Shown here piece after piece: positions 12,475 through 43,556 of a stretch of DNA of 64,000 nt. This DNA comes from a virus (taxonomy: Duplodnaviria; Caudoviricetes). The first letter of the stretch is position 1, and each line of letters begins with the position of its first letter. The stretch lies in the IMG/VR virus record IMGVR_UViG_3300037501_000255; one strand, given 5' to 3'. The position numbers were made by a program, and so were the translations under genes. The notes beneath the pieces were generated by a model that made no database searches, was not told the DNA's origin, and worked only from the letters and a program-made list of their open reading frames with translations.

Positions 12475-13680
12475 TCAGGCTATGTCGAGCTCGTAGATCT
12501 TGGACCCGACCCCATACATTCTGTAAACACCTGCCTGTAAAGCAATCTCGCGCTCGCTTTTTTCTCCAGAAGCACGGTATTTGAATCTATGATACCTAGA
12601 TATTCCATCAGTATAGTAATAATCTGGTTTTGTATGGCCAACTTCGGAAAACCCACTAACCACATACACATTGCCAGTACCATAGCGCAAATCAGAATAT
12701 GACAGAATTTTTCTGTACCTTCCTGATAGCTCAGCCTTTACCGCCGCCAGTAGTTTACTAAACCCACCCATAACAGAGTGTCCTCGGAGCACTGCGAATC
12801 TTGCAATCTCAATAGTCTCTAAATACTTCTTGGTAAAAGGCTGTCGCATAGAGATTGCTGCGACGATCTGATCCGCATGCTGCAATCCCAGATAAAGCTG
12901 TCCGGCGGTATGTCCGGATATATGATTATATTTGAAAAATTCTGCTGCCGATTTGGCAGTTAGCGTAACCACATCACACCGCCTCGCCGCAATCTTCACC
13001 AGACCAGGCATGCCGGCCTTTGCAATAATCATAGACTTAATCAGATCTCTATTTGTGAGAAGCTCATCCATAAAAAACACAAGTGCTGTATATCCACCCT
13101 GTGCAGCTCTATAGAAATCTCTTGCTAAGAAACGGTACTGTGAGAAATATGTTGAGTTTGGAATTATGAGGATTATTGTCTGACCATTAGATACGATCCC
13201 GGTATCCTGGTCAAAATCAAAACCTATTTCATTAGCAAATTCGTTAATTATAGGCATATGTGCGGAGTAAAGACCAACCAAGCTTTTTAAAGTGCGGCAA
13301 ATATCTACCAGCTGCACTGCGGCGGCGTCAATGGACCGAATCTCCCTAATCACACGCCGTGCCCGACCAGCACGACTTAGAGAGTATGCCGCTCGACTCC
13401 TTCTGTTAGAATTAATCTCTGACGGATCTATAAATCTCCGCAGCACGCGACTAACAGTCATCTTATTACTAAAGATTATGTCGGGATGCGACGAAATCTG
13501 TTCGACAGTAAGCCCCGACCTATACAGGTCAACGCACATCCGCTCATTCCTCAAATACTCGGAATGATGGTGGACTCGCACATGCTTTGAAATGTACACA
13601 GATTGCTTTCCACAAATACGACACACTACACTCGCCTCCACGTATATCCTCCATGGCTTTTTCTCCGTCCCAGACAACAA
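12475..13680 (-). CDS. Zn-finger/HTH protein with Hef-like putative homing endonuclease C-terminal domain
   Basis: N-terminal CRICG...KHVRVHH (C2H2) and an HTH. The C-terminus FFKYNHISG...EIARFA...GGFSKLL...ILSYSDLRYGTGNVY..GF...HTKPDYYY resembles phage Hef-like proteins (family from recall). The likely start is GTG at 13626, with GGAGG upstream. Confidence 0.6.
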   Translation of the reverse strand: MLSGTEKKPWRIYVEASVVCRICGKQSVYISKHVRVHHHSEYLRNERMCVDLYRSGLTVEQISSHPDIIFSNKMTVSRVLRRFIDPSEINSNRRSRAAYSLSRAGRARRVIREIRSIDAAAVQLVDICRTLKSLVGLYSAHMPIINEFANEIGFDFDQDTGIVSNGQTIILIIPNSTYFSQYRFLARDFYRAAQGGYTALVFFMDELLTNRDLIKSMIIAKAGMPGLVKIAARRCDVVTLTAKSAAEFFKYNHISGHTAGQLYLGLQHADQIVAAISMRQPFTKKYLETIEIARFAVLRGHSVMGGFSKLLAAVKAELSGRYRKILSYSDLRYGTGNVYVVSGFSEVGHTKPDYYYTDGISRYHRFKYRASGEKSEREIALQAGVYRMYGVGSKIYELDIA

Positions 13681-14684
13681 AGAGAAACTTTGTTAGGCAT
13701 AAATCCATCCAATAACGTAGATGCAGTATCAGGGTACTCCTTCTGCTCGCCCGTCTCAATAGACGTTCCAATTACCCGGCCTTTACTACGCTGCGGAGCA
13801 ACAAGTGACTGGCTGAGAGGAGAATCTCCCCACTCCCAAAAACAGCCTTTATGCGTGCGGCGCGTGCCCTCACAGCACGAAATGACATTCCCTACCGAGT
13901 AACCGTCGCCAGAGACGGCAGATACCATTGGATACAGAAATACAGTACCATCCGAACAAGATATTCTGCGGACACACCTCCCGCTGACCTTTCGACGCCT
14001 TGGCGCCTTTTTAGGCACAACGGCACTAGAAATTTCATTATTGAAACTCCATAAATAACCATTATGAGATTTAAGCTGCGACCGACAGCACGCATACACA
14101 CTGCTATATGTGGCTCCCGGCGTGTTACGCACGGCCGCAGAGATGCTGTCAAAAATGCACTGGTTACCACCATCTAAATCACTTCTAATTATACTACAAG
14201 ATATCCTAGTAGTTATAAACTTTGGACTTGTACCATCAGCAAATTGCCACAAGTACCCGCGATGACTTGCCATATGTCCATGGCAGCACGCCGTAATACT
14301 ACCCTCGTTAAACCCTTCTAGGGCCGCTAAGTCACGCGTAGCGAATTCTACAGATTCGCCGGTTTTCATATCGATACGAACAATAGGCCTATTCGGCGGC
14401 GGATTAGGAGCATTAACGTCTTTAGATATATTGTATTCAGGCTGAATAGTATCTATATAGAACTGCTCGAGATCAAAAAGATTGGTTGTATCACACTGCT
14501 CAATAACTTCAAACACAAAAGCACTGGGACCGTATTTTTCCCATGCAGATTGAAGATACCTTGAGTGATGCTTGCCGTTCCGCAAATCGCGCCTGTGGCA
14601 TTGCCACCTAGATTTTATGTTGTTAGACGAGCCTATGTAGCAATGTCCAGATAATACATTGTATATTATATAGATGCCAATCAC
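13626..14684 (-). CDS. Free-standing GIY-YIG homing endonuclease with four NUMOD1-like repeats
   Basis: GIYIIYN...CYIGSS..IKSRW..H...L..GKH..YLQ..W.KYG..AFVFEVIE is the GIY-YIG domain. Four repeats of I..CC.G...SH.GY.W follow. Confidence 0.9.
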   Translation of the reverse strand: MIGIYIIYNVLSGHCYIGSSNNIKSRWQCHRRDLRNGKHHSRYLQSAWEKYGPSAFVFEVIEQCDTTNLFDLEQFYIDTIQPEYNISKDVNAPNPPPNRPIVRIDMKTGESVEFATRDLAALEGFNEGSITACCHGHMASHRGYLWQFADGTSPKFITTRISCSIIRSDLDGGNQCIFDSISAAVRNTPGATYSSVYACCRSQLKSHNGYLWSFNNEISSAVVPKKAPRRRKVSGRCVRRISCSDGTVFLYPMVSAVSGDGYSVGNVISCCEGTRRTHKGCFWEWGDSPLSQSLVAPQRSKGRVIGTSIETGEQKEYPDTASTLLDGFMPNKVSLCCLGRRKSHGGYTWRRV

Positions 14685-14757
14685 AATAATTATTATTGGC
14701 TTGTAACGTTGGATGGACTTTAGATATATAAATCAGCACAATGTTACAAGCAAAATA

Positions 14758-14785
14758 AAACGCGCAGGGCGAAACCTGCGCGTTT
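14758..14785 (-). terminator. Rho-independent terminator after the major capsid gene
   Basis: On the minus strand AAACGCGCAGG-TTTCGC-CCTGCGCGTTT forms an 11-bp stem, followed by TATTTTG. Confidence 0.8.
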
Positions 14786-14816
14786 CACTGCTGCCTTTTG
14801 GCAGCTAATTCAGCTA

Positions 14817-17800
14817 TCAGCCGGATGTGACGCTCTTACGACCAGCGGCAACACCACGCGGGTTAAGCACGCTGACACCGATAATTTCGCTCACAACCCA
14901 TCCCAACATCAGACGTTTTGGTTCATCAGCCGGAAGTGTCTCGATGTCCTGGCGAACTGGCATGACACCAACGAATTCCGGATCAGCGCAGGCGAAGACG
15001 GTACCCGGGGTAACGATCTTGCTCACGATGATATCGGCTCCGAAGATGCGGCCGTAAAGACCGGTCTGGAGAATTTCGCGGTGGGTTACCGGATCCACAT
15101 CGGCAACGCCAGCACCGTTCTGTGAGGACCACATACGGATGTCGTTTAGCTCGAAAATGTTCATGAAGAACTTCGTGGTTACGAGGTCCCAACGATCAAC
15201 CTGTGTAGCGATCTCAACGAGGTCGCGACGGGTTAGACCGCCATCAATAATATCCTGAGCGGTGTTTTCACCACCGAGTGAGGCGTCAGCAGCGAAATCA
15301 AGCGCTGCGAAAACGTTTGCGTCTTCTTGAGCTTGGCAGCTCTGTTAATCTCCAATCGCTTGGAGTGTCGGACTATACCTTCTGCTATTTTGTAGCAGCA
15401 CCATTTGTAGTCTCTGAGGGGACTAGTTTATACAACATACTAGGAACAACAATATTCCTTAACATGTCTGAAAGTTGCACGGAAGATTTCCTATCAAACG
15501 CAATTTCGTAACTAACTTCATTAGCAGTTGTGCGTTTTGAAATCCACGTCTTTAGCCCAAACTTGCGATTCAACATATCTCTTAATGCATTGACCTCATC
15601 TTTTGTAAATGAGTTTGTGTATAAGATATTTCGTTTGCAAGTACCTGTCAGCGAGCCATCATCCTGCAACCATACTGCTAAAGATATGATGTTAAAGTGT
15701 TCATTTATGAAATTCATATCTAAACTCTTTTTACCATTCTTATAAAATGCATGATATAATTGAAAGAATGCTGGGTGACTAACTGTGCTAAATGTGTATG
15801 AGTGATATACTTTATCGCCATTTCGATGTTGAGCTTGTCTTGGATATTTATTTGGATCCGGCAACCAATCCTTTAATGCCTCAAAGAGCCAAAATAAGTA
15901 CTCGCGATGTTTCGCTGACTGCTCAATTATTAATGACGGGTAAGTTTGAGAACCATCTCTAAGTCTAAGGTGACCATCGCCTAGTAAAAGACCAACAATA
16001 AGATTAACCTCTTGCTCGTCTAGTCTGGCTTTCGGATGACGCTCATACTGCTCGATTGCCTTAATCAAATACTTATTTCTAAGTCTGTGAACTTGTCCGA
16101 GTGTTAAGTCGAACTTGTCGGCAATTTCGCTATCTGAAAACTTCTTTACAACATATAGTTCGTGAAGTTTTTCGTAAGAAAGTATATCTTCAACCTTCAT
16201 TTTATCTATCCCCTGCTGATTGTCCCATACTGTTTAGATTTTTACTCGATTTATCGGTACTAAACAGCTTCGAGGATTTCCAGCATAACCTGGTATTTTA
16301 ACGGAGACCCAAGGTCAGTTGATCTCCTGGCGAGCCTTCTGAACGGCACGGTCAATAACATTGAACCGGCGCATCTTGACTTCGCGAATGCGCACAACCG
16401 GGTTCGAAACGATTTCGAATTCCGGAACGTGTACGCGGTCGCCGCGAACTTGTGACTCTGGTGCTGAACCGTTGGCGGAAACAACAACAGCGGCCACGTC
16501 GATATCGCGGTCATAAACAGCTAGCGCTCCGTTTGGTACAAAATGTTACTCTCTTTTCAGAGGGGCTAGTCATTTCTGCCAGCCTCTGCATATCGCTATG
16601 CAGGTCAGACTATATCACCTTCTACTTTGTAGAAGCTTCGCATGTAGTCGTTGAGGAACGGTTCATGATTTTATATTGCATAGATGGTATTACGAAATCT
16701 CTCACTATATCCGATATAATCTGCGTATTTCTTTTATTGAAAGATAGGAAGTAGTACTTCTTTTTATTCCTAGTATATTCACGCACATTACCATTTACAT
16801 TGAAGTTAATTTTGATTGCCTGTAACAATCTCATATTTTCTTTTAGTGTAAATGAATCGGTTTGCAATCTTAAGTTGACACCTTTATTTAAGGAGCCATC
16901 ATCCATAATCCAAACTGCAAGAGCAGGGGGAGTGAGCCACATTTCGATTTCATTAGGAACTATCTTAACAGAGTTCCTATAAAACACATCTCTTAGAACA
17001 TTAAACTCAATATGTGTTATCGTATTGAATTCAGTGTACTCAAATCCGGTCCTGGGGTCAATCCTATTCCGAAGCTCGAGGCTTATTGGAGTAAGTTGTT
17101 CATGTAACCATTTAGATAATTCGTTCTGCTTTTTACAGTGCGATATCATCAACCTGGCTAGGCGACCATGTTTAGCTATATGGCCATCCCCAAGCATTGT
17201 GCCCCAAACCAATTCCTTTTGAAATCTGGTTAATTGCACTTTTTTACGCATTTCAAAATTGCGCTTAGCATGATTTCTATCAATGCCAAGTTTTTTTAAT
17301 TTGCGTAGGACAGAAGATTTGTTTACGTTAAAGTGGTTCGCAATCTTACGACTGGACCAGCGCTGATTAACGTAGAGTTCGATCAACTCATTCTCTGCTA
17401 TCATTTTACCTTTCCTGCTGATTGTCTGCATCGTCAACTGATTTTCACTTACTCTTTTAAGCGATCCCGAGCGCAGTGCCACGAGATATATGTTTGAGTC
17501 AGTACAGTTGAATTCCCAGAGTTTCCAGCATACAGCGAAATTTTCCTGAGGGTTAGCTCAGGCCGCTACCATTAACGGGTCAACAACGAGCGCACGGCGA
17601 GCAACACCTTGATAATCAAGGTTGCGACGGATCGGGAGAGCCATCGCTTGGCCGAGAGCAATCTTGCCTTCAGTCGTCTGAAGAGCGCGCTTAACCATGT
17701 CGTCCTTCTGCTGTTCAGTGTAGGACGGCTTGCCAGCTAGGGACTGGTTCGCGCTCATATGGTTCTGAATAACACTTGCATACTTGGCAAGGTTAGAGAC

Positions 17801-17860
17801 TGCATCTGCAACGGACGTCGCATTCATCTCTCCCTTGTCATTAAAAAGACCTGTAGTCAT
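14817..17860 (-). CDS. Major capsid protein (340 aa after splicing; exons 17575..17860, 16322..16538, 14817..15336)
   Basis: The exons total 286+217+520=1023 nt, in frame. The junctions give ...RRALVVDPL|PNGALAVYDRDIDV... and ...RAVQKARQEI|QAQEDANVFAAL..., ending ...RQDIETLPADEPKRLMLGWVVSEIIGVSVLNPRG, a capsid-like sequence. It lies downstream of the protease/scaffold and decoration genes. Confidence 0.88.
15337..16321 (-). mobile_element. Group I intron 2 in the major capsid gene (985 nt)
   Basis: The 5' exon ends in U (GGAGAU) pairing with IGS GUCUCC, P10 CUUGG pairs with 3' exon CCAAG, and the intron ends in G. Core motifs: P AUGCUGGAAAU, Q AAUCAGCAGG, R CCUCAGAGACUAC, S GAAGGUAUAGUCC. 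P7 is GACUA/UAGUC. Confidence 0.92.
15385..16200 (-). CDS. Intron-encoded LAGLIDADG homing endonuclease with N-terminal HTH
   Basis: Two LAGLIDADG motifs, LIVGLLLGDGHL and LAVWLQDDGS, inside intron 2. Confidence 0.9.
   Translation of the reverse strand: MKVEDILSYEKLHELYVVKKFSDSEIADKFDLTLGQVHRLRNKYLIKAIEQYERHPKARLDEQEVNLIVGLLLGDGHLRLRDGSQTYPSLIIEQSAKHREYLFWLFEALKDWLPDPNKYPRQAQHRNGDKVYHSYTFSTVSHPAFFQLYHAFYKNGKKSLDMNFINEHFNIISLAVWLQDDGSLTGTCKRNILYTNSFTKDEVNALRDMLNRKFGLKTWISKRTTANEVSYEIAFDRKSSVQLSDMLRNIVVPSMLYKLVPSETTNGAATK
16539..17574 (-). mobile_element. Group I intron 1 in the major capsid gene (1036 nt)
   Basis: The 5' exon ends CCGU pairing with IGS GCGG, P10 UGGUA pairs with 3' exon UACCA, and the intron ends in G. 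Core motifs: P AUGCUGGAAAC, Q AAUCAGCAGG, R CCUCAACGACUAC, S GAUAUAGUCU. P3 is UUCGC/GCGAA. Confidence 0.92.
16622..17482 (-). CDS. Intron-encoded LAGLIDADG homing endonuclease with N-terminal HTH
   Basis: Motifs LVWGTMLGDGHI and LAVWIMDDGS. The likely true start is ATG at 17404 (MIAENEL), just after the Q motif. Confidence 0.9.
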   Translation of the reverse strand: MALRSGSLKRVSENQLTMQTISRKGKMIAENELIELYVNQRWSSRKIANHFNVNKSSVLRKLKKLGIDRNHAKRNFEMRKKVQLTRFQKELVWGTMLGDGHIAKHGRLARLMISHCKKQNELSKWLHEQLTPISLELRNRIDPRTGFEYTEFNTITHIEFNVLRDVFYRNSVKIVPNEIEMWLTPPALAVWIMDDGSLNKGVNLRLQTDSFTLKENMRLLQAIKINFNVNGNVREYTRNKKKYYFLSFNKRNTQIISDIVRDFVIPSMQYKIMNRSSTTTCEASTK

Positions 17861-18048: not shown

Positions 18049-18080
18049 AATTGTGGAGCGGGTCGCCCCACTCCACAATT
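18049..18080 (-). terminator. Rho-independent terminator after the decoration gene
   Basis: On the minus strand AATTGTGGAGTGGG-GCGA-CCCGCTCCACAATT forms a 14-bp stem with a GNRA loop, running into a T-tract. Confidence 0.85.
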
Positions 18081-20323: not shown

Positions 20324-21736
20324 TTAATCACCTAAGATGCTTTTTAACTCAGTATTTATATGCTGACTCATACTACGTGAACGTTTATTAGAAGAGGGGG
20401 TCTTTCCGCGAGCGCGTGGAGAATTGTATTGTGTTGCAGGCGGCGAGGTATACTGAGCACTCGGTGCCGATGGCGCAGTCGCGCGTGATGCGCCGCCACC
20501 CTTCATTGCTTTAAAGCCGGCAAATATTACAGCTGCCAATGCTGCAGCTAAGCCTAGCTTGCCAACTTTACCTTTAAACATGGAGATAAGACCGGCATCA
20601 CCCCCGCGTGCGGCAGCCATAAGGCGAGCCTGTCTCAACTCCTGCTTTTGAAAGTCTGCGCGATGTTTGAGGGTTTGACGATGCTCTGCATTGCGCATAT
20701 CAAGGCGCTTCTTTAATTCTTCACGCTCTGCGCGCGACATATTCTTTTTGGCACGCTCAAGCTCGTCATATGACATCGGGGTGCCTGAGATCGCCGCCAC
20801 CATAAGGCGATGTTGCTCAGGAGTAATCTTACCCATCACCAACTCTCGTTGAAGATCGAATTTTTGCTTCTCTTTCAAATACCTATCTTCAATTTCATAC
20901 TTAGTACGAATCTGATGCTCCATCGATTCGCGATCTCTGAGGAATTTTCCATGCTCCATTTCAGCATGGTGGCGATCCAAGTCTTTCTTCCGCTCATGTG
21001 CAGATGCCGCCTCGGCTTGGTCAATCTCGCGAAGCTTCAGCTGCTGATCGAATGTAAGTCCAGCATATTCGCGCCTACGCAAATGCTTGCGCCGGTCGAA
21101 TTCGTCACGTATCTCCATCTTCGCACGCTCCTGCGCTAGAGGAACTGACTTAGAGGCCGCAGGCGACTCCGTAGGCTTATCCGCAAAAGGCTGCTTTTGC
21201 CTTTGAGTCCATGGAGGTAAAATCTCTCCACCAGGAAGCTCAATGGGCGCTGGTGCCCTAGCCTTTGGTCCGCCAGCAGGTTGGGCAGCTTCAAATTCTA
21301 CCGGTGCAGGAGCTTTTGTTTTGACATTGGTAGTAGGCTGAGCTGCCTCGAAAGTTATTTTACTTTTTGGAGTACCCGCAGGCTGTTTAGCTGGCTCTGC
21401 TGCCAATACCACCCGACCGGACCGCAGAACCTCGGCACGAGCCTCTAGTTCGGGATACATTTCATCTGCCATCTGCCCAGCTAACTCTGACGGGTTTATA
21501 TTCGACAAATCTTTACCAGCCAGCTTCTCATCGAGCATGCGCCCCACATCAGCGAGACCTATGCCCATCATGCCGGCCGCAACATTCAGAATAGCTAGGG
21601 GACCGCTAACAAGCATTAACCCTCGCCCACCCCAGCGTAGGCTGTTTTCGAAAAAGCCCTTCTCATCATCCCATATTAGGTCTTTTATAACCTCGGGAAC
21701 TTCGCCTTGAAAAAAATCAGCCTGCTTTGAGATCAT
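20324..21736 (-). CDS. Putative internal head/ejection protein with two hydrophobic segments
   Basis: N-terminal SKQA motif, two Gly-rich hydrophobic segments, a Pro/Ala linker and a charged coiled coil. Confidence 0.5.
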   Translation of the reverse strand: MISKQADFFQGEVPEVIKDLIWDDEKGFFENSLRWGGRGLMLVSGPLAILNVAAGMMGIGLADVGRMLDEKLAGKDLSNINPSELAGQMADEMYPELEARAEVLRSGRVVLAAEPAKQPAGTPKSKITFEAAQPTTNVKTKAPAPVEFEAAQPAGGPKARAPAPIELPGGEILPPWTQRQKQPFADKPTESPAASKSVPLAQERAKMEIRDEFDRRKHLRRREYAGLTFDQQLKLREIDQAEAASAHERKKDLDRHHAEMEHGKFLRDRESMEHQIRTKYEIEDRYLKEKQKFDLQRELVMGKITPEQHRLMVAAISGTPMSYDELERAKKNMSRAEREELKKRLDMRNAEHRQTLKHRADFQKQELRQARLMAAARGGDAGLISMFKGKVGKLGLAAALAAVIFAGFKAMKGGGASRATAPSAPSAQYTSPPATQYNSPRARGKTPSSNKRSRSMSQHINTELKSILGD

Positions 21737-40643: not shown

Positions 40644-43556
40644 TTATATTCTCGGCAAATATGCCAACATCGGCACTGGCAAACCGGGACCTTTAGCCTT
40701 GACCTCGCTGCCCTTGAAGCCGCTCGTCGCCAAGAACTTGTATGCAATCAGAGCATATATTGTTGCCATGAGCCCGTCGTTTTGGATAGCACCCTTGACA
40801 TATCTGTTATATACATTATCATTCTTCACGATCTTCTTAACTTCCATCGAGGTAAAATGCTGCATCAACCACTCGATCCTATCGTATGACTCGCCATGTA
40901 CAGGGAAGCGGATTTTGCCATTTCTAACCATAGAGAATATCTCTTCTATCATGGCATCCTTATTTAAAACAACTCGTAATTCTTTTGGCTTATATGATAT
41001 AGTGCTATTCAAGGTGCCGCTGTTTATACATCCTAGAAATCGCTCACCAAAGCCCATCGAGCCCTGCATGTGTTGCACTATGTCTTGGCCGTATCCGATA
41101 TCTGCAGCAGCAACCTGAACCTTGAATAGTCGATACATTTCAGATATGATATTGACCTTGTATTCAAAATCATTGCGCTTTAATCTATAAGCATTTTCTA
41201 TTGTAAATATTCCATTTTTGTCCACACTAACAATTACCACGGCTGTATATGACTGCCCGGCATCAACTCTTCCTCCGCCAGAGTCCTCTTCATCCTCATC
41301 GCCAGCACCGACTAGGTCCTTCCCTCCCCAGTCTATGCCCATCACGACGGTTTTGTCTCCGCGATCAATAATAGTTTTTGCTAATCCACGAGTTCCGTCG
41401 CAGCAGTTTGCGCGAATATCATCTAGCGATATCGTCATGCCGCCACCACTATAGAACTCTCCCAATGTTTCATTTTTCCAGGCCTTCTCACTGCGTTCGC
41501 GATTTACAGACGGATCTAGGTCCAAAATGCTCTCTTTAGTAAACCAAGGATGTAGTAAAACACTTACGTGATAGCCCACATACTGCGTCTCGCCAAGCTT
41601 AGTAGGCATCCAGCGCCCACCCTCGATCGCATCAGCCTTTTTCTGCAACGTACCGCATTCGGGGCAGCGAACATCATGCCCGGATACCCAAATCTTCTTC
41701 CAGGAGTCGCTACCCATAGTGTATAGGAAAAAATAATGGGAGCAGCCAGTACACCGTAGCTGATAAAATCTCTGATCAGATTTTTGCCATAGGTTATAGA
41801 AGTGGGATCCTGTTCCTTTCGGCGTTCCAAAATATACCTGTATACCTTTGGTGGGCCTGCCATACTGTGCAGATGTTAAGATGGGACCCGCCGTCTCGAT
41901 AGCATCCTTTGACATATCCTGGCAATTGTGTGCAATCGGGCCACCGACATTTTTGCTGGTCCGGCTTGGGCAAAGTATGAAGTTATGGTTATCAGCTACG
42001 CCAATATCGTAAACGGCGTCTTCGCCAGCATCATACTGTAATTTGTCAACACATGTGAAAGCGTGCGAAGGACTACTGTTTGACCATGCATACCTATCTG
42101 CCGCCCAGCTGCGATAAAAAGATAGCTTATATTCCATATTATGATGCACATATGGCTGTATTATCTCACAAAGTTTTGAATAATTGGATGAATCCAGATA
42201 TAATGAAAAGTATGAGTAGTACTTTCTATATTCCGCGTTAATTCCAAACCTGGACAGCATCGCAACTAATCGAACCTGCGTATCCTCATCAAATGAGCAC
42301 GTTGAGATGCACGCACATCCCTTATTTACGAAGCCATCATCCATAAACCAGACAGCAAGAGCGCGAGCGTCAGCAGCATCCAACATCCACTGCGGACACG
42401 TACTCTTTGTGCGAGGAATGTATCCTGGTAATACAAAGCACTTTGATGAAAAACGTACTGCTGGCTTCTGAACATAACCATTTTTCTCAATATATGCAAC
42501 GCTACTATTAAACATCGACGCTTTCCATTCTGCGTATTCGCGCTGCTGTATGCCATGTGTTACAGAAAGGCGAAAGCGCCCACTCTTGGGACTCGAGATA
42601 TGGCCATCTCCGAGGAATGAACCAATTGCTATCTGCAGCTGGTCAGAATTCAAAGCGCGCACGCAGAGGTCTGTCCCAGGCGAAGTCATCAGGGCATCAC
42701 CGATACACAGGGACGATGCATCTACCCAGCCACGCTGAGTTAAAAATCTATGATTCGGCGTGCATTTGATCTCTCGATTTCCACAAGTAATTTGCATTAA
42801 TTTTCGGATTCCGCGATTCCAGGCACCATTAATTTGCTTGAACTCAAAAGTACAAGTTGACTCATTATAGCTCTTTACAAGCGGAAGCGGCTCACCGTTC
42901 GCCCACATATCATACAGCTTGCCTATTTTCTCTTTGCCAGAATCAGTCTCTATGTTCTGATCGTAGGGGAAACACTCGTCAAAGAAAATAGCGTCCTGCG
43001 AGAGACCGCGGATTCGGTCGCCATCCGCTCCGGTACCCTCTATACGAAGCTTATTGTATCCCTTAAATGTCTTTTCAGCTATAGCATCCTCCGTTCCTGC
43101 GACTTTAATAGCATTTGCGTCATTTTTTAACATTCTGCTATTTATATAGCCATTCTGCGAGCCTGCTACCATAGGGCCCAATTTATCTTTGGCGTACTTC
43201 GACATTAATCCTAGTGTTGGAAATACATGCAGAACCCTCATCGGAGGTTTGTCTGGTCCAGTGCCAAAGAGCCCTGAGGCTGTGAAGTACAATGATAATA
43301 CAGCCGCAAGAACAGTGGCGCCTATTTGGCGCCCCTTCAAAATCACCATCGGTTTAGCGGTCTTATTAGCCGCCTGAGCTGCCACTTCGCGATACAGGTC
43401 GGCCATAAACTTCCAACCAGTGCCACTCATGCGGAATGGTTTTCCGTCTACAGTCAGATGATTTTCTGCAAATGAAACAGGATCAAGAAGAGATATCTCA
43501 TTCTTGATCTGATTGAAAAGTTTTAGCGTTACTTCTTTGTTGGCTACTACCGTCAT
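40644..43556 (-). CDS. terL: Large terminase subunit with LAGLIDADG intein (620 aa after splicing)
   Basis: KGRQIGAT (Walker A), AIFFDE (Walker B), FGTP coupling motif and nuclease motif VMGIDWG. Confidence 0.92.
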   Translation of the reverse strand: MTVVANKEVTLKLFNQIKNEISLLDPVSFAENHLTVDGKPFRMSGTGWKFMADLYREVAAQAANKTAKPMVILKGRQIGATVLAAVLSLYFTASGLFGTGPDKPPMRVLHVFPTLGLMSKYAKDKLGPMVAGSQNGYINSRMLKNDANAIKVAGTEDAIAEKTFKGYNKLRIEGTGADGDRIRGLSQDAIFFDECFPYDQNIETDSGKEKIGKLYDMWANGEPLPLVKSYNESTCTFEFKQINGAWNRGIRKLMQITCGNREIKCTPNHRFLTQRGWVDASSLCIGDALMTSPGTDLCVRALNSDQLQIAIGSFLGDGHISSPKSGRFRLSVTHGIQQREYAEWKASMFNSSVAYIEKNGYVQKPAVRFSSKCFVLPGYIPRTKSTCPQWMLDAADARALAVWFMDDGFVNKGCACISTCSFDEDTQVRLVAMLSRFGINAEYRKYYSYFSLYLDSSNYSKLCEIIQPYVHHNMEYKLSFYRSWAADRYAWSNSSPSHAFTCVDKLQYDAGEDAVYDIGVADNHNFILCPSRTSKNVGGPIAHNCQDMSKDAIETAGPILTSAQYGRPTKGIQVYFGTPKGTGSHFYNLWQKSDQRFYQLRCTGCSHYFFLYTMGSDSWKKIWVSGHDVRCPECGTLQKKADAIEGGRWMPTKLGETQYVGYHVSVLLHPWFTKESILDLDPSVNRERSEKAWKNETLGEFYSGGGMTISLDDIRANCCDGTRGLAKTIIDRGDKTVVMGIDWGGKDLVGAGDEDEEDSGGGRVDAGQSYTAVVIVSVDKNGIFTIENAYRLKRNDFEYKVNIISEMYRLFKVQVAAADIGYGQDIVQHMQGSMGFGERFLGCINSGTLNSTISYKPKELRVVLNKDAMIEEIFSMVRNGKIRFPVHGESYDRIEWLMQHFTSMEVKKIVKNDNVYNRYVKGAIQNDGLMATIYALIAYKFLATSGFKGSEVKAKGPGLPVPMLAYLPRI
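41925..42974 (-). mobile_element. Intein (350 aa) inserted after the terminase Walker B Glu
   Basis: Begins CFPYDQNI and has block B CTPNH, LAGLIDADG motifs IAIGSFLGDG and LAVWFMDDG, block F VYDIGVADNHNF, and ends AHN followed by +1 Cys (DE|CQDM). Confidence 0.95.

Follow-up and report, generated by a model that had tools for sequence, protein, structure and literature searches.

The 64,000-nt stretch of DNA analysed here (the window) belongs to IMG/VR virus record IMGVR_UViG_3300037501_000255 (Duplodnaviria; Caudoviricetes), which comes from an uncultured, phage-G-like freshwater jumbo phage. Between positions 14,817 and 17,860 its minus strand carries what is very probably one 340-aa major capsid protein (MCP) gene cut by two mobile group I introns. 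The listing of open reading frames (ORFs) breaks this locus into pieces: an N-terminal capsid fragment (17860..17558) and a C-terminal fragment (15164..14817), both on the minus strand, flank a pair of long ORFs at 17482..16622 and 16200..15385 as well as a short open frame at 16497..16315. We read these pieces as the arrangement below, given from the 5′ end of the gene.

17575..17860 (-): MCP exon 1, 286 nt; ATG at 17860 with AGGAG just 5′ of it; last base, U 17575, at the 5′ splice site
16539..17574 (-): predicted group I intron 1, 1036 nt, 38.7% GC; omega-G at 16539
16622..17404 (-): putative LAGLIDADG homing endonuclease gene of intron 1, 260 aa from ATG 17404; stop UAG 16624..16622 in P8
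16322..16538 (-): MCP exon 2, 217 nt
15337..16321 (-): predicted group I intron 2, 985 nt, 37.9% GC; omega-G at 15337; no P2
15385..16200 (-): putative LAGLIDADG homing endonuclease gene of intron 2, 271 aa, in L6; stop UAG 15387..15385 in P8
14817..15336 (-): MCP exon 3, 520 nt with the stop codon 14819..14817

The capsid gene and its uninterrupted alleles

Joining 17860..17575, 16538..16322 and 15336..14817 gives 1023 nt, that is, 340 codons and a stop. With a slash at each exon boundary, the joined sequence reads GACCCGT/TACCAAAC at junction 1 and CAGGAGAT/CCAAGCT at junction 2, and the peptides that cross the two boundaries are DPLPNG and QEIQAQ. Intron 1 is inserted after codon 95 plus one base and intron 2 after codon 167 plus two bases, and a shift of either boundary by a single base violates the requirement for U as the last exon base and G as the last intron base. 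Read through into the inserts, the capsid frame reaches a stop 5 codons (intron 1) or 2 codons (intron 2) beyond the 5′ splice site. The exons are 52–55% GC versus 38–39% in the inserts. The first-pass annotation had proposed an MCP gene in three exons with two inserts, with a middle exon of only 217 nt; every coordinate holds on the minus strand, including 16538..16322 for that exon, and the splice sites, 340-aa product, junction strings and peptides that it gave are all reproduced when the exons are joined.

The joined product is a recognizable capsid protein. A tblastn search with exon 3 led to the MCPs of jumbo and other large phages, the best being Bacillus phage G gp27, with which the spliced protein shares 52% identity across 284 residues (E 4e-102). 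The alignment is ungapped at both junctions, which fall within blocks conserved with gp27 (VVDPLPNGAL versus VVDPLPQGAL; RQEIQAQEDA versus KADIMAVEDA). The phage G gene is uninterrupted and encodes 282 aa, and relative to it the window protein has about 47 additional N-terminal residues. A megablast search of the region against GenBank phages gave no match.

The closest allele in IMG/VR, L006, is also uninterrupted, and its protein is 94% identical to the spliced protein. Taken individually, the window exons are 86–96% identical to the intact L006 protein and their reading frames are open. On the L006 DNA the three exons are contiguous to the single base, as they are in the intron-less L007 and, for site 1, in L008. 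The intron-less alleles use different synonymous codons at the junctions, for example CCGC/TTCC versus CCGT/TACC in the window. The L006 protein matches chain A of PDB 6WKK, which is phage G gp27, over residues 48–331 (E 3.2e-86), and PHROG 2522 (major head protein; E 2.6e-74). Phage G gp27 has been assigned to the HK97 family (PMC12484599). The first-pass annotation had proposed looking for an HK97-fold match in the joined protein; the match is present by way of 6WKK, and the spliced protein is a close homologue of a solved HK97-family capsid.

Two predicted group I ribozymes with putative endonuclease genes in loop L6

The following elements were placed on the two inserts, all on the minus strand.

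17563..17578 (-): intron 1 P1; exon CCGU plus intron UA (17578..17573) pairs with UAGCGG (17568..17563), with U.G at the splice site
17570..17567 with 16538..16535 (-): intron 1 P10; guide GGUA pairs with UACC at the start of exon 2
17540..17535 (-): intron 1 P3 5′ strand, just upstream of the P4-P5-P4′ domain
17416..17530 (-): intron 1 P4-P5-P4′ domain; P4 is UGCUGG/UCAGCA
17416..17409 (-): intron 1 P6 5′ strand, just downstream of the P4-P5-P4′ domain
16581..16661 (-): intron 1 catalytic 3′ core with P6′, J6/7, P7, P3′, P8, J8/7, P7′ and P9
16327..16322 with 16308..16303 (-): intron 2 P1; GGAGAU pairs with GUCUCC, with U.G at the splice site
16313..16309 with 15336..15332 (-): intron 2 P10; CUUGG pairs with CCAAG
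15345..15424 (-): intron 2 catalytic 3′ core, P6′ to P9

P3, P4, P6, P7, P8 and P9 can all be formed in both introns, together with a P10 of 4–5 bp. In intron 1 the helices are P2, P3 (UUUCGC/GCGAAG), P6 (AGGAAAGG/CCGUUCCU), P7 (GACUA/UAGUC), P8, P9 and P9.1, and in intron 2 they are P3 (UACCA/UGGUG), P6 (AGGGG/CCCCU), P8 and P9, with P4 and P7 as in intron 1. In each intron the minimum-free-energy fold of the P4-P5-P4′ region is a single long stem, with AAA at J4/5. Across its bulge, P7 has an additional pair, which is A-U for intron 1 and G-C for intron 2; of the 42 relatives, 36 have A-U here and 6 have G-C. P7.1 and P7.2 are absent from the window introns, and some non-capsid relatives that share the P4-P6 motif seem to have additional helices there. 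Based on the U.G pair in P1, the omega-G with P10, the P3-P9 core in pseudoknot order and the P4-P6 domain, taken together with the related introns and the family model described next, we assign both inserts to the group I class with high confidence.

Comparison with related introns, found through the ribozyme motif and tblastn (a search with the intron 1 endonuclease alone returned none), points the same way. The whole-intron MAFFT alignment of ORF-less introns was poor at the P1 end, P8 and the 3′ tail, so only the 3′ module was modelled. A family covariance model was built from 42 distinct 3′ modules of related introns, with the window introns and the near copy in L008 excluded. It finds 16581-16661 at 74.3 bits (E 7.7e-16) and 15345-15424 at 41.7 bits (E 5.2e-8); intron 1 has only standard pairs at the modelled P7, P8 and P9 positions, and intron 2 has a single non-standard one, in P9. 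Over the whole 142-kb virus record that contains the window, the model gave no matches beyond the two introns and a weak one at 20832-20947 (-). The latter scores 15 bits (E 0.14) within a 470-aa ORF (20324..21736) that is unbroken, and is probably due to chance.

Within the 42-module alignment, P7, P8 and P9 are paired in 93.1% of cells versus 76.5% in shuffles, double-sided changes number 140 versus 42, and slid registers pair at 31–44%. Several relatives are ORF-less and only 252–306 nt long, and RNAalifold applied to seven of the ORF-less ones recovered P3, P4, P5 with its extension, P6 and P9 unguided, with compensatory changes at 25 of 48 pairs. Across the family, P3 has 14 distinct 5′ strands and is 92% paired versus 70% (maximum 80%) with shuffled partners; the family form UUUGGC/GCCAAA can be set against UUUCGC/GCGAAG and UACCA/UGGUG in the window. 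P6 varies as AGGA/UCCU, AGGG/CCCU, AGGC/GCCU and AGGU/ACCU. Both window introns have compensated versions of their own of P3 and P6, the helices that bridge the ORF. In introns at other codons the P1 and P10 guides match their own flanking exons, and they change with the insertion site.

Both introns hold an intact gene in L6 for what is predicted to be a double-motif LAGLIDADG endonuclease of the monomeric type. LAGLIDADG_2 (Pfam PF03161) matches at E 1e-37 (intron 1) and 2e-36 (intron 2) with nearly the whole profile covered, and both ORFs match PHROG 11023. The two motifs keep their acidic residue in each protein (MLGDGH and IMDDGS in intron 1; LLGDGH and LQDDGS in intron 2), the N-terminal region of both gives weak helix-turn-helix matches, and identity between the two proteins is 31%. 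For the intron 1 gene, homologues align from residue 1 of the version beginning at ATG 17404, which favours that start over an upstream GTG. The first-pass annotation had described both inserts as group I introns with endonuclease genes, a description with which the anatomy, the family model and the Pfam matches agree.

The endonuclease frames run into the ribozymes. In both introns the ORF passes through P6′, J6/7, P7 and P3′ and ends within P8, such that its final ~12 codons are also catalytic core; for intron 1 the last 13 codons overlap P6′, J6/7, P7, P3′ and P8. The likely ribosome-binding site is the P6 5′ strand, AGGAAAGG being the Shine-Dalgarno sequence in intron 1. A relative, L012, has the same ORF-through-core layout. 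With the ribosome-binding site in P6 and the frame continuing through P6′, P7 and P3′ into P8, ribozyme folding and endonuclease translation would be mutually exclusive on any one RNA, and we infer that the two compete for each molecule.

Proposed splicing pathway, alternatives and gene neighbourhood

In the mechanism that we propose, the capsid gene would be transcribed as a single ~3.1-kb pre-mRNA, from which both introns would have to be removed by group I splicing to give the 340-aa HK97-family capsid protein. Guanosine would attack after the U.G pair of P1, and exon ligation would follow the terminal G, assisted by P10. Homing would presumably begin with cleavage of an intron-less capsid allele by the LAGLIDADG enzyme at the exon junction, after which repair would copy the intron into that allele. 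We infer splicing of both introns from their anatomy and exon boundaries, and hold the whole scheme, group I splicing together with LAGLIDADG homing, to be highly probable.

Several observations weigh against it. No RNA run containing the window DNA was found, the sole holder being a DNA run, probably of the source sample, which has the two-intron form only, with no joint across either intron. The first-pass annotation had proposed Infernal with the Rfam group I model as a check, and here the curated threshold was not reached: RF00028 scored 27.5 bits for intron 1 (E 4e-4) and 20.2 bits for intron 2 (E 0.058) against a gathering cutoff of 50, and Rfam at gathering thresholds gave zero matches in the whole window. 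The Rfam alignment is broken by the 780–810-nt ORF in L6, with the 5′ half of the model landing inside the ORF, and in E-value mode Rfam also gave zero matches at three related loci. P1 of intron 1 has only 4 exon base pairs, both the activity and the target of the endonucleases are putative, and the virus record is ~38% complete, which means that another capsid gene may lie outside it.

The strongest competing explanation, to which we give a small probability, is that these are real group I introns that are not strictly self-splicing and need a protein helper, either their own LAGLIDADG maturase or a host factor. A precedent exists in fungal mitochondria, where the LAGLIDADG proteins of some introns also act as maturases, and dependence on a helper would fit both the short P1 of intron 1 and the overlap of endonuclease frame and catalytic core, a sign that protein and RNA have co-evolved. 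Every core helix is nevertheless intact in both window introns, and the 252–306-nt ORF-less relatives in the same gene keep a full core, which argues that the ribozyme is maintained without an intron protein.

Self-splicing introns in a working gene are also to be preferred to a dead or decaying capsid gene with non-splicing introns, in a phage that uses another capsid gene encoded in its unsequenced part. The incompleteness of the record leaves room for such a gene. The dead-gene reading is very unlikely, however, given open exons with 86–96% identity to the L006 protein, ribozyme cores and endonuclease ORFs that are intact in both introns, and the position of the capsid gene among head genes, between two terminators, with no second copy of the MCP gene within the 142-kb record. 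The two terminators are as follows.

14754..14789 (-): terminator-like hairpin and U-run, just 3′ of the MCP stop
18080..18049 (-): second terminator-like hairpin, between the upstream gene and the MCP start

Least credible of all is that the inserts are free-standing endonuclease genes or inteins, with the capsid made as fragments or mended at the protein level: split phage genes with inserted endonuclease genes exist and a true LAGLIDADG intein is present in the large terminase of this phage, but exon-frame stops 2–5 codons into the inserts make protein splicing impossible, no start codon or ribosome site was seen for translation from the start of exon 2 or exon 3, and complete group I cores with guide pairings fix exact RNA junctions.

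The terminase in question is a 970-aa ORF at 40644-43556 (-) with a GpA_ATPase match (E 1.8e-10), and its intein occupies approximately residues 210–528 (Intein_splicing, E 7.5e-13; LAGLIDADG_2, E 1.3e-16). Together with the capsid introns it places RNA-level and protein-level LAGLIDADG elements in the head and packaging genes of one phage. Directly downstream of the capsid gene are two free-standing homing endonuclease genes, 13626-14684 (-) and 12475-13680 (-), which overlap by 55 nt if the longest possible starts are taken. One of the pair is GIY-YIG with NUMOD-like repeats, and the other, of 401 aa, matches PHROG 3339 ('homing endonuclease', E 1e-38) and has a weak Mom-family match. No similarity to gp26, the decoration protein of phage G, could be detected in the upstream 237-aa gene.

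An intron family in the capsid genes of phage-G-like jumbo phages

Close alleles of the capsid gene differ in their introns: neither is present in L006, L008 carries intron 2 alone, in exactly the same position, and the window has both. Between L008 and the window, the ribozyme parts of intron 2 are nearly invariant and the endonuclease proteins share 80% identity (88% as mean column identity in the stretch that was aligned). The intron 1 endonuclease is closest to enzymes at the same site, codon 96 (L103, L102 and L141), and the intron 2 endonuclease to enzymes at codon 168 (L008, L099 and L115). This pattern of alleles and endonucleases appears to be the usual signature of homing elements.

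Further traces of the same elements were seen. Another related phage is represented in the source metagenome by a 39-kb contig, which matches 16322-16365, the last 44 nt of exon 2, and runs directly into exon-3-like sequence (EIMAQEDANIF), so an allele without an intron at site 2 shares the sample; short contigs from this metagenome match parts of the intron 1 ribozyme. The ORF at L102:2595-3350 (+) has 43% identity to the endonuclease of intron 2. It is located outside the capsid gene, upstream of its start, and would be either free-standing or within an intron of the neighbouring gene.

A search of IMG/VR for the P4...P4′ motif yielded 65 stretches, and 44 of the 64 newly fetched loci are in homologues of the window capsid gene. 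These homologues have about nine insertion sites, at own codons ~73, 76, 77, 78, 79, 90, 96, 165/168 and 251, a list good to about one codon, with the automatic boundaries partly misplaced where introns crowd. The largest number of loci found, at least 17, is at site 96. The first-pass annotation had considered double interruption of an MCP gene uncommon. In a sample of 90 distinct full-length homologous capsid genes, biased in that it was partly chosen by intron motif, a conservative pattern count that undercounts gave one core in 15 genes, two in 8 and three in 3. At least 11 of the 90 therefore have two or three introns of the window's family, and within this clade double interruption is recurrent.

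Crowding is extreme in L125 (-), where three ORF-less introns of the same family, among them L125:1532-1801 and L125:1851-2133, lie within ~30 codons. The exons left between them measure ~50 nt and 19 nt (GCGTTGGTTGTTGACCCCT, at ~1513-1531). L098, L138 and L145 resemble L125. Sites 96 (L102, L104 and the window) and 251 (L105, L116, L122/L101 and L140) have a common exon sequence around the splice point, GAUCC(C)GU/UAC, and both host a subtype with a short P1 (UAGCGG) followed directly by P2; site 251 is empty in the window. The common exon sequence and intron subtype suggest movement of introns between look-alike sites of one gene.

Group I introns of phage T4 (td, nrdB and sunY) have an endonuclease ORF looped out of the ribozyme and an early in-frame stop after the 5′ splice site, and their endonucleases are expressed from within structured RNA. 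They encode GIY-YIG or HNH enzymes, interrupt nucleotide-metabolism genes and have P7.1 and P7.2 helices. The window introns share with them the looped-out ORF and the early stop; they differ in that P7.1 and P7.2 are missing and the ORF, of the LAGLIDADG type, runs into P7, P3′ and P8.

Introns in capsid genes are an already known and published arrangement, in the form of single introns. In mycobacteriophage LittleE, splicing of a capsid-gene group I intron was demonstrated by reverse transcription PCR and N-terminal sequencing (Pope et al. 2013, PMC3706429), and a capsid-gene intron in lactococcal phage Tuc2009 is cited in the same article. Like the window introns, that of LittleE is of group I type, contains a gene for a LAGLIDADG-related endonuclease, interrupts the major capsid gene of a tailed phage, has a 5′ exon ending in U and an intron ending in G, and is missing from close relatives. 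However, LittleE has one intron with its endonuclease gene on the opposite strand, whereas the window, from a jumbo phage, has two with sense-strand genes in L6 that overlap the core, and splicing is demonstrated in LittleE and deduced from sequence here.

Several group I introns in one essential phage gene are likewise described for Staphylococcus phage Twort, whose orf142 has three (Landthaler & Shub 1999, as cited in PMC6669764), and jumbo gut ('Jug') phages are described as having many introns and homing endonucleases, including in terL, with splicing supported by metatranscriptomes (PMC12880540). The portions of these two articles drawn on here name terL, nrdD and DNA polymerase as interrupted genes and do not name a capsid gene (PMC6669764, PMC12880540); according to the latter, and unlike the window introns, those of the Jug phages average ~206 nt and are mostly ORF-less.

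Ordinary group I splicing with LAGLIDADG homing is well supported as the probable mechanism by these sequence comparisons, and the interest of the locus lies mainly in the family hotspot and in the overlap of ORF and core. For the window itself, the annotation is corrected: gene callers report the capsid gene only as three fragments, alongside two endonuclease genes, whereas there would truly be a single 340-aa capsid gene, and the exact junctions can be used for testing in metatranscriptomes. Capsid-based classification of phages from metagenomes will miss or truncate such split genes. The locus would also illustrate cleanly how an essential late gene with very high expression can depend on two ribozymes, both of them with an endonuclease frame that overlaps the core.

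We suggest, as a tentative interpretation, that this intron family has radiated in the capsid gene of the phage-G-like jumbo clade, with about nine sites, up to three or more introns in some genes, an exon of 19 nt and endonuclease lineages that track sites, and that the window introns are endonuclease-bearing copies at two recurrent sites. Such introns may be weapons against co-infecting intron-less relatives, a role that has been reported for the endonuclease of a phage PhiPA3 intron (PMC11620839). The ORF-less and ORF-bearing introns at many sites form a natural series for studying how introns and endonucleases change target, and the wider pattern, in which the capsid gene of a jumbo clade is a hotspot for one intron family, may outweigh the single case.

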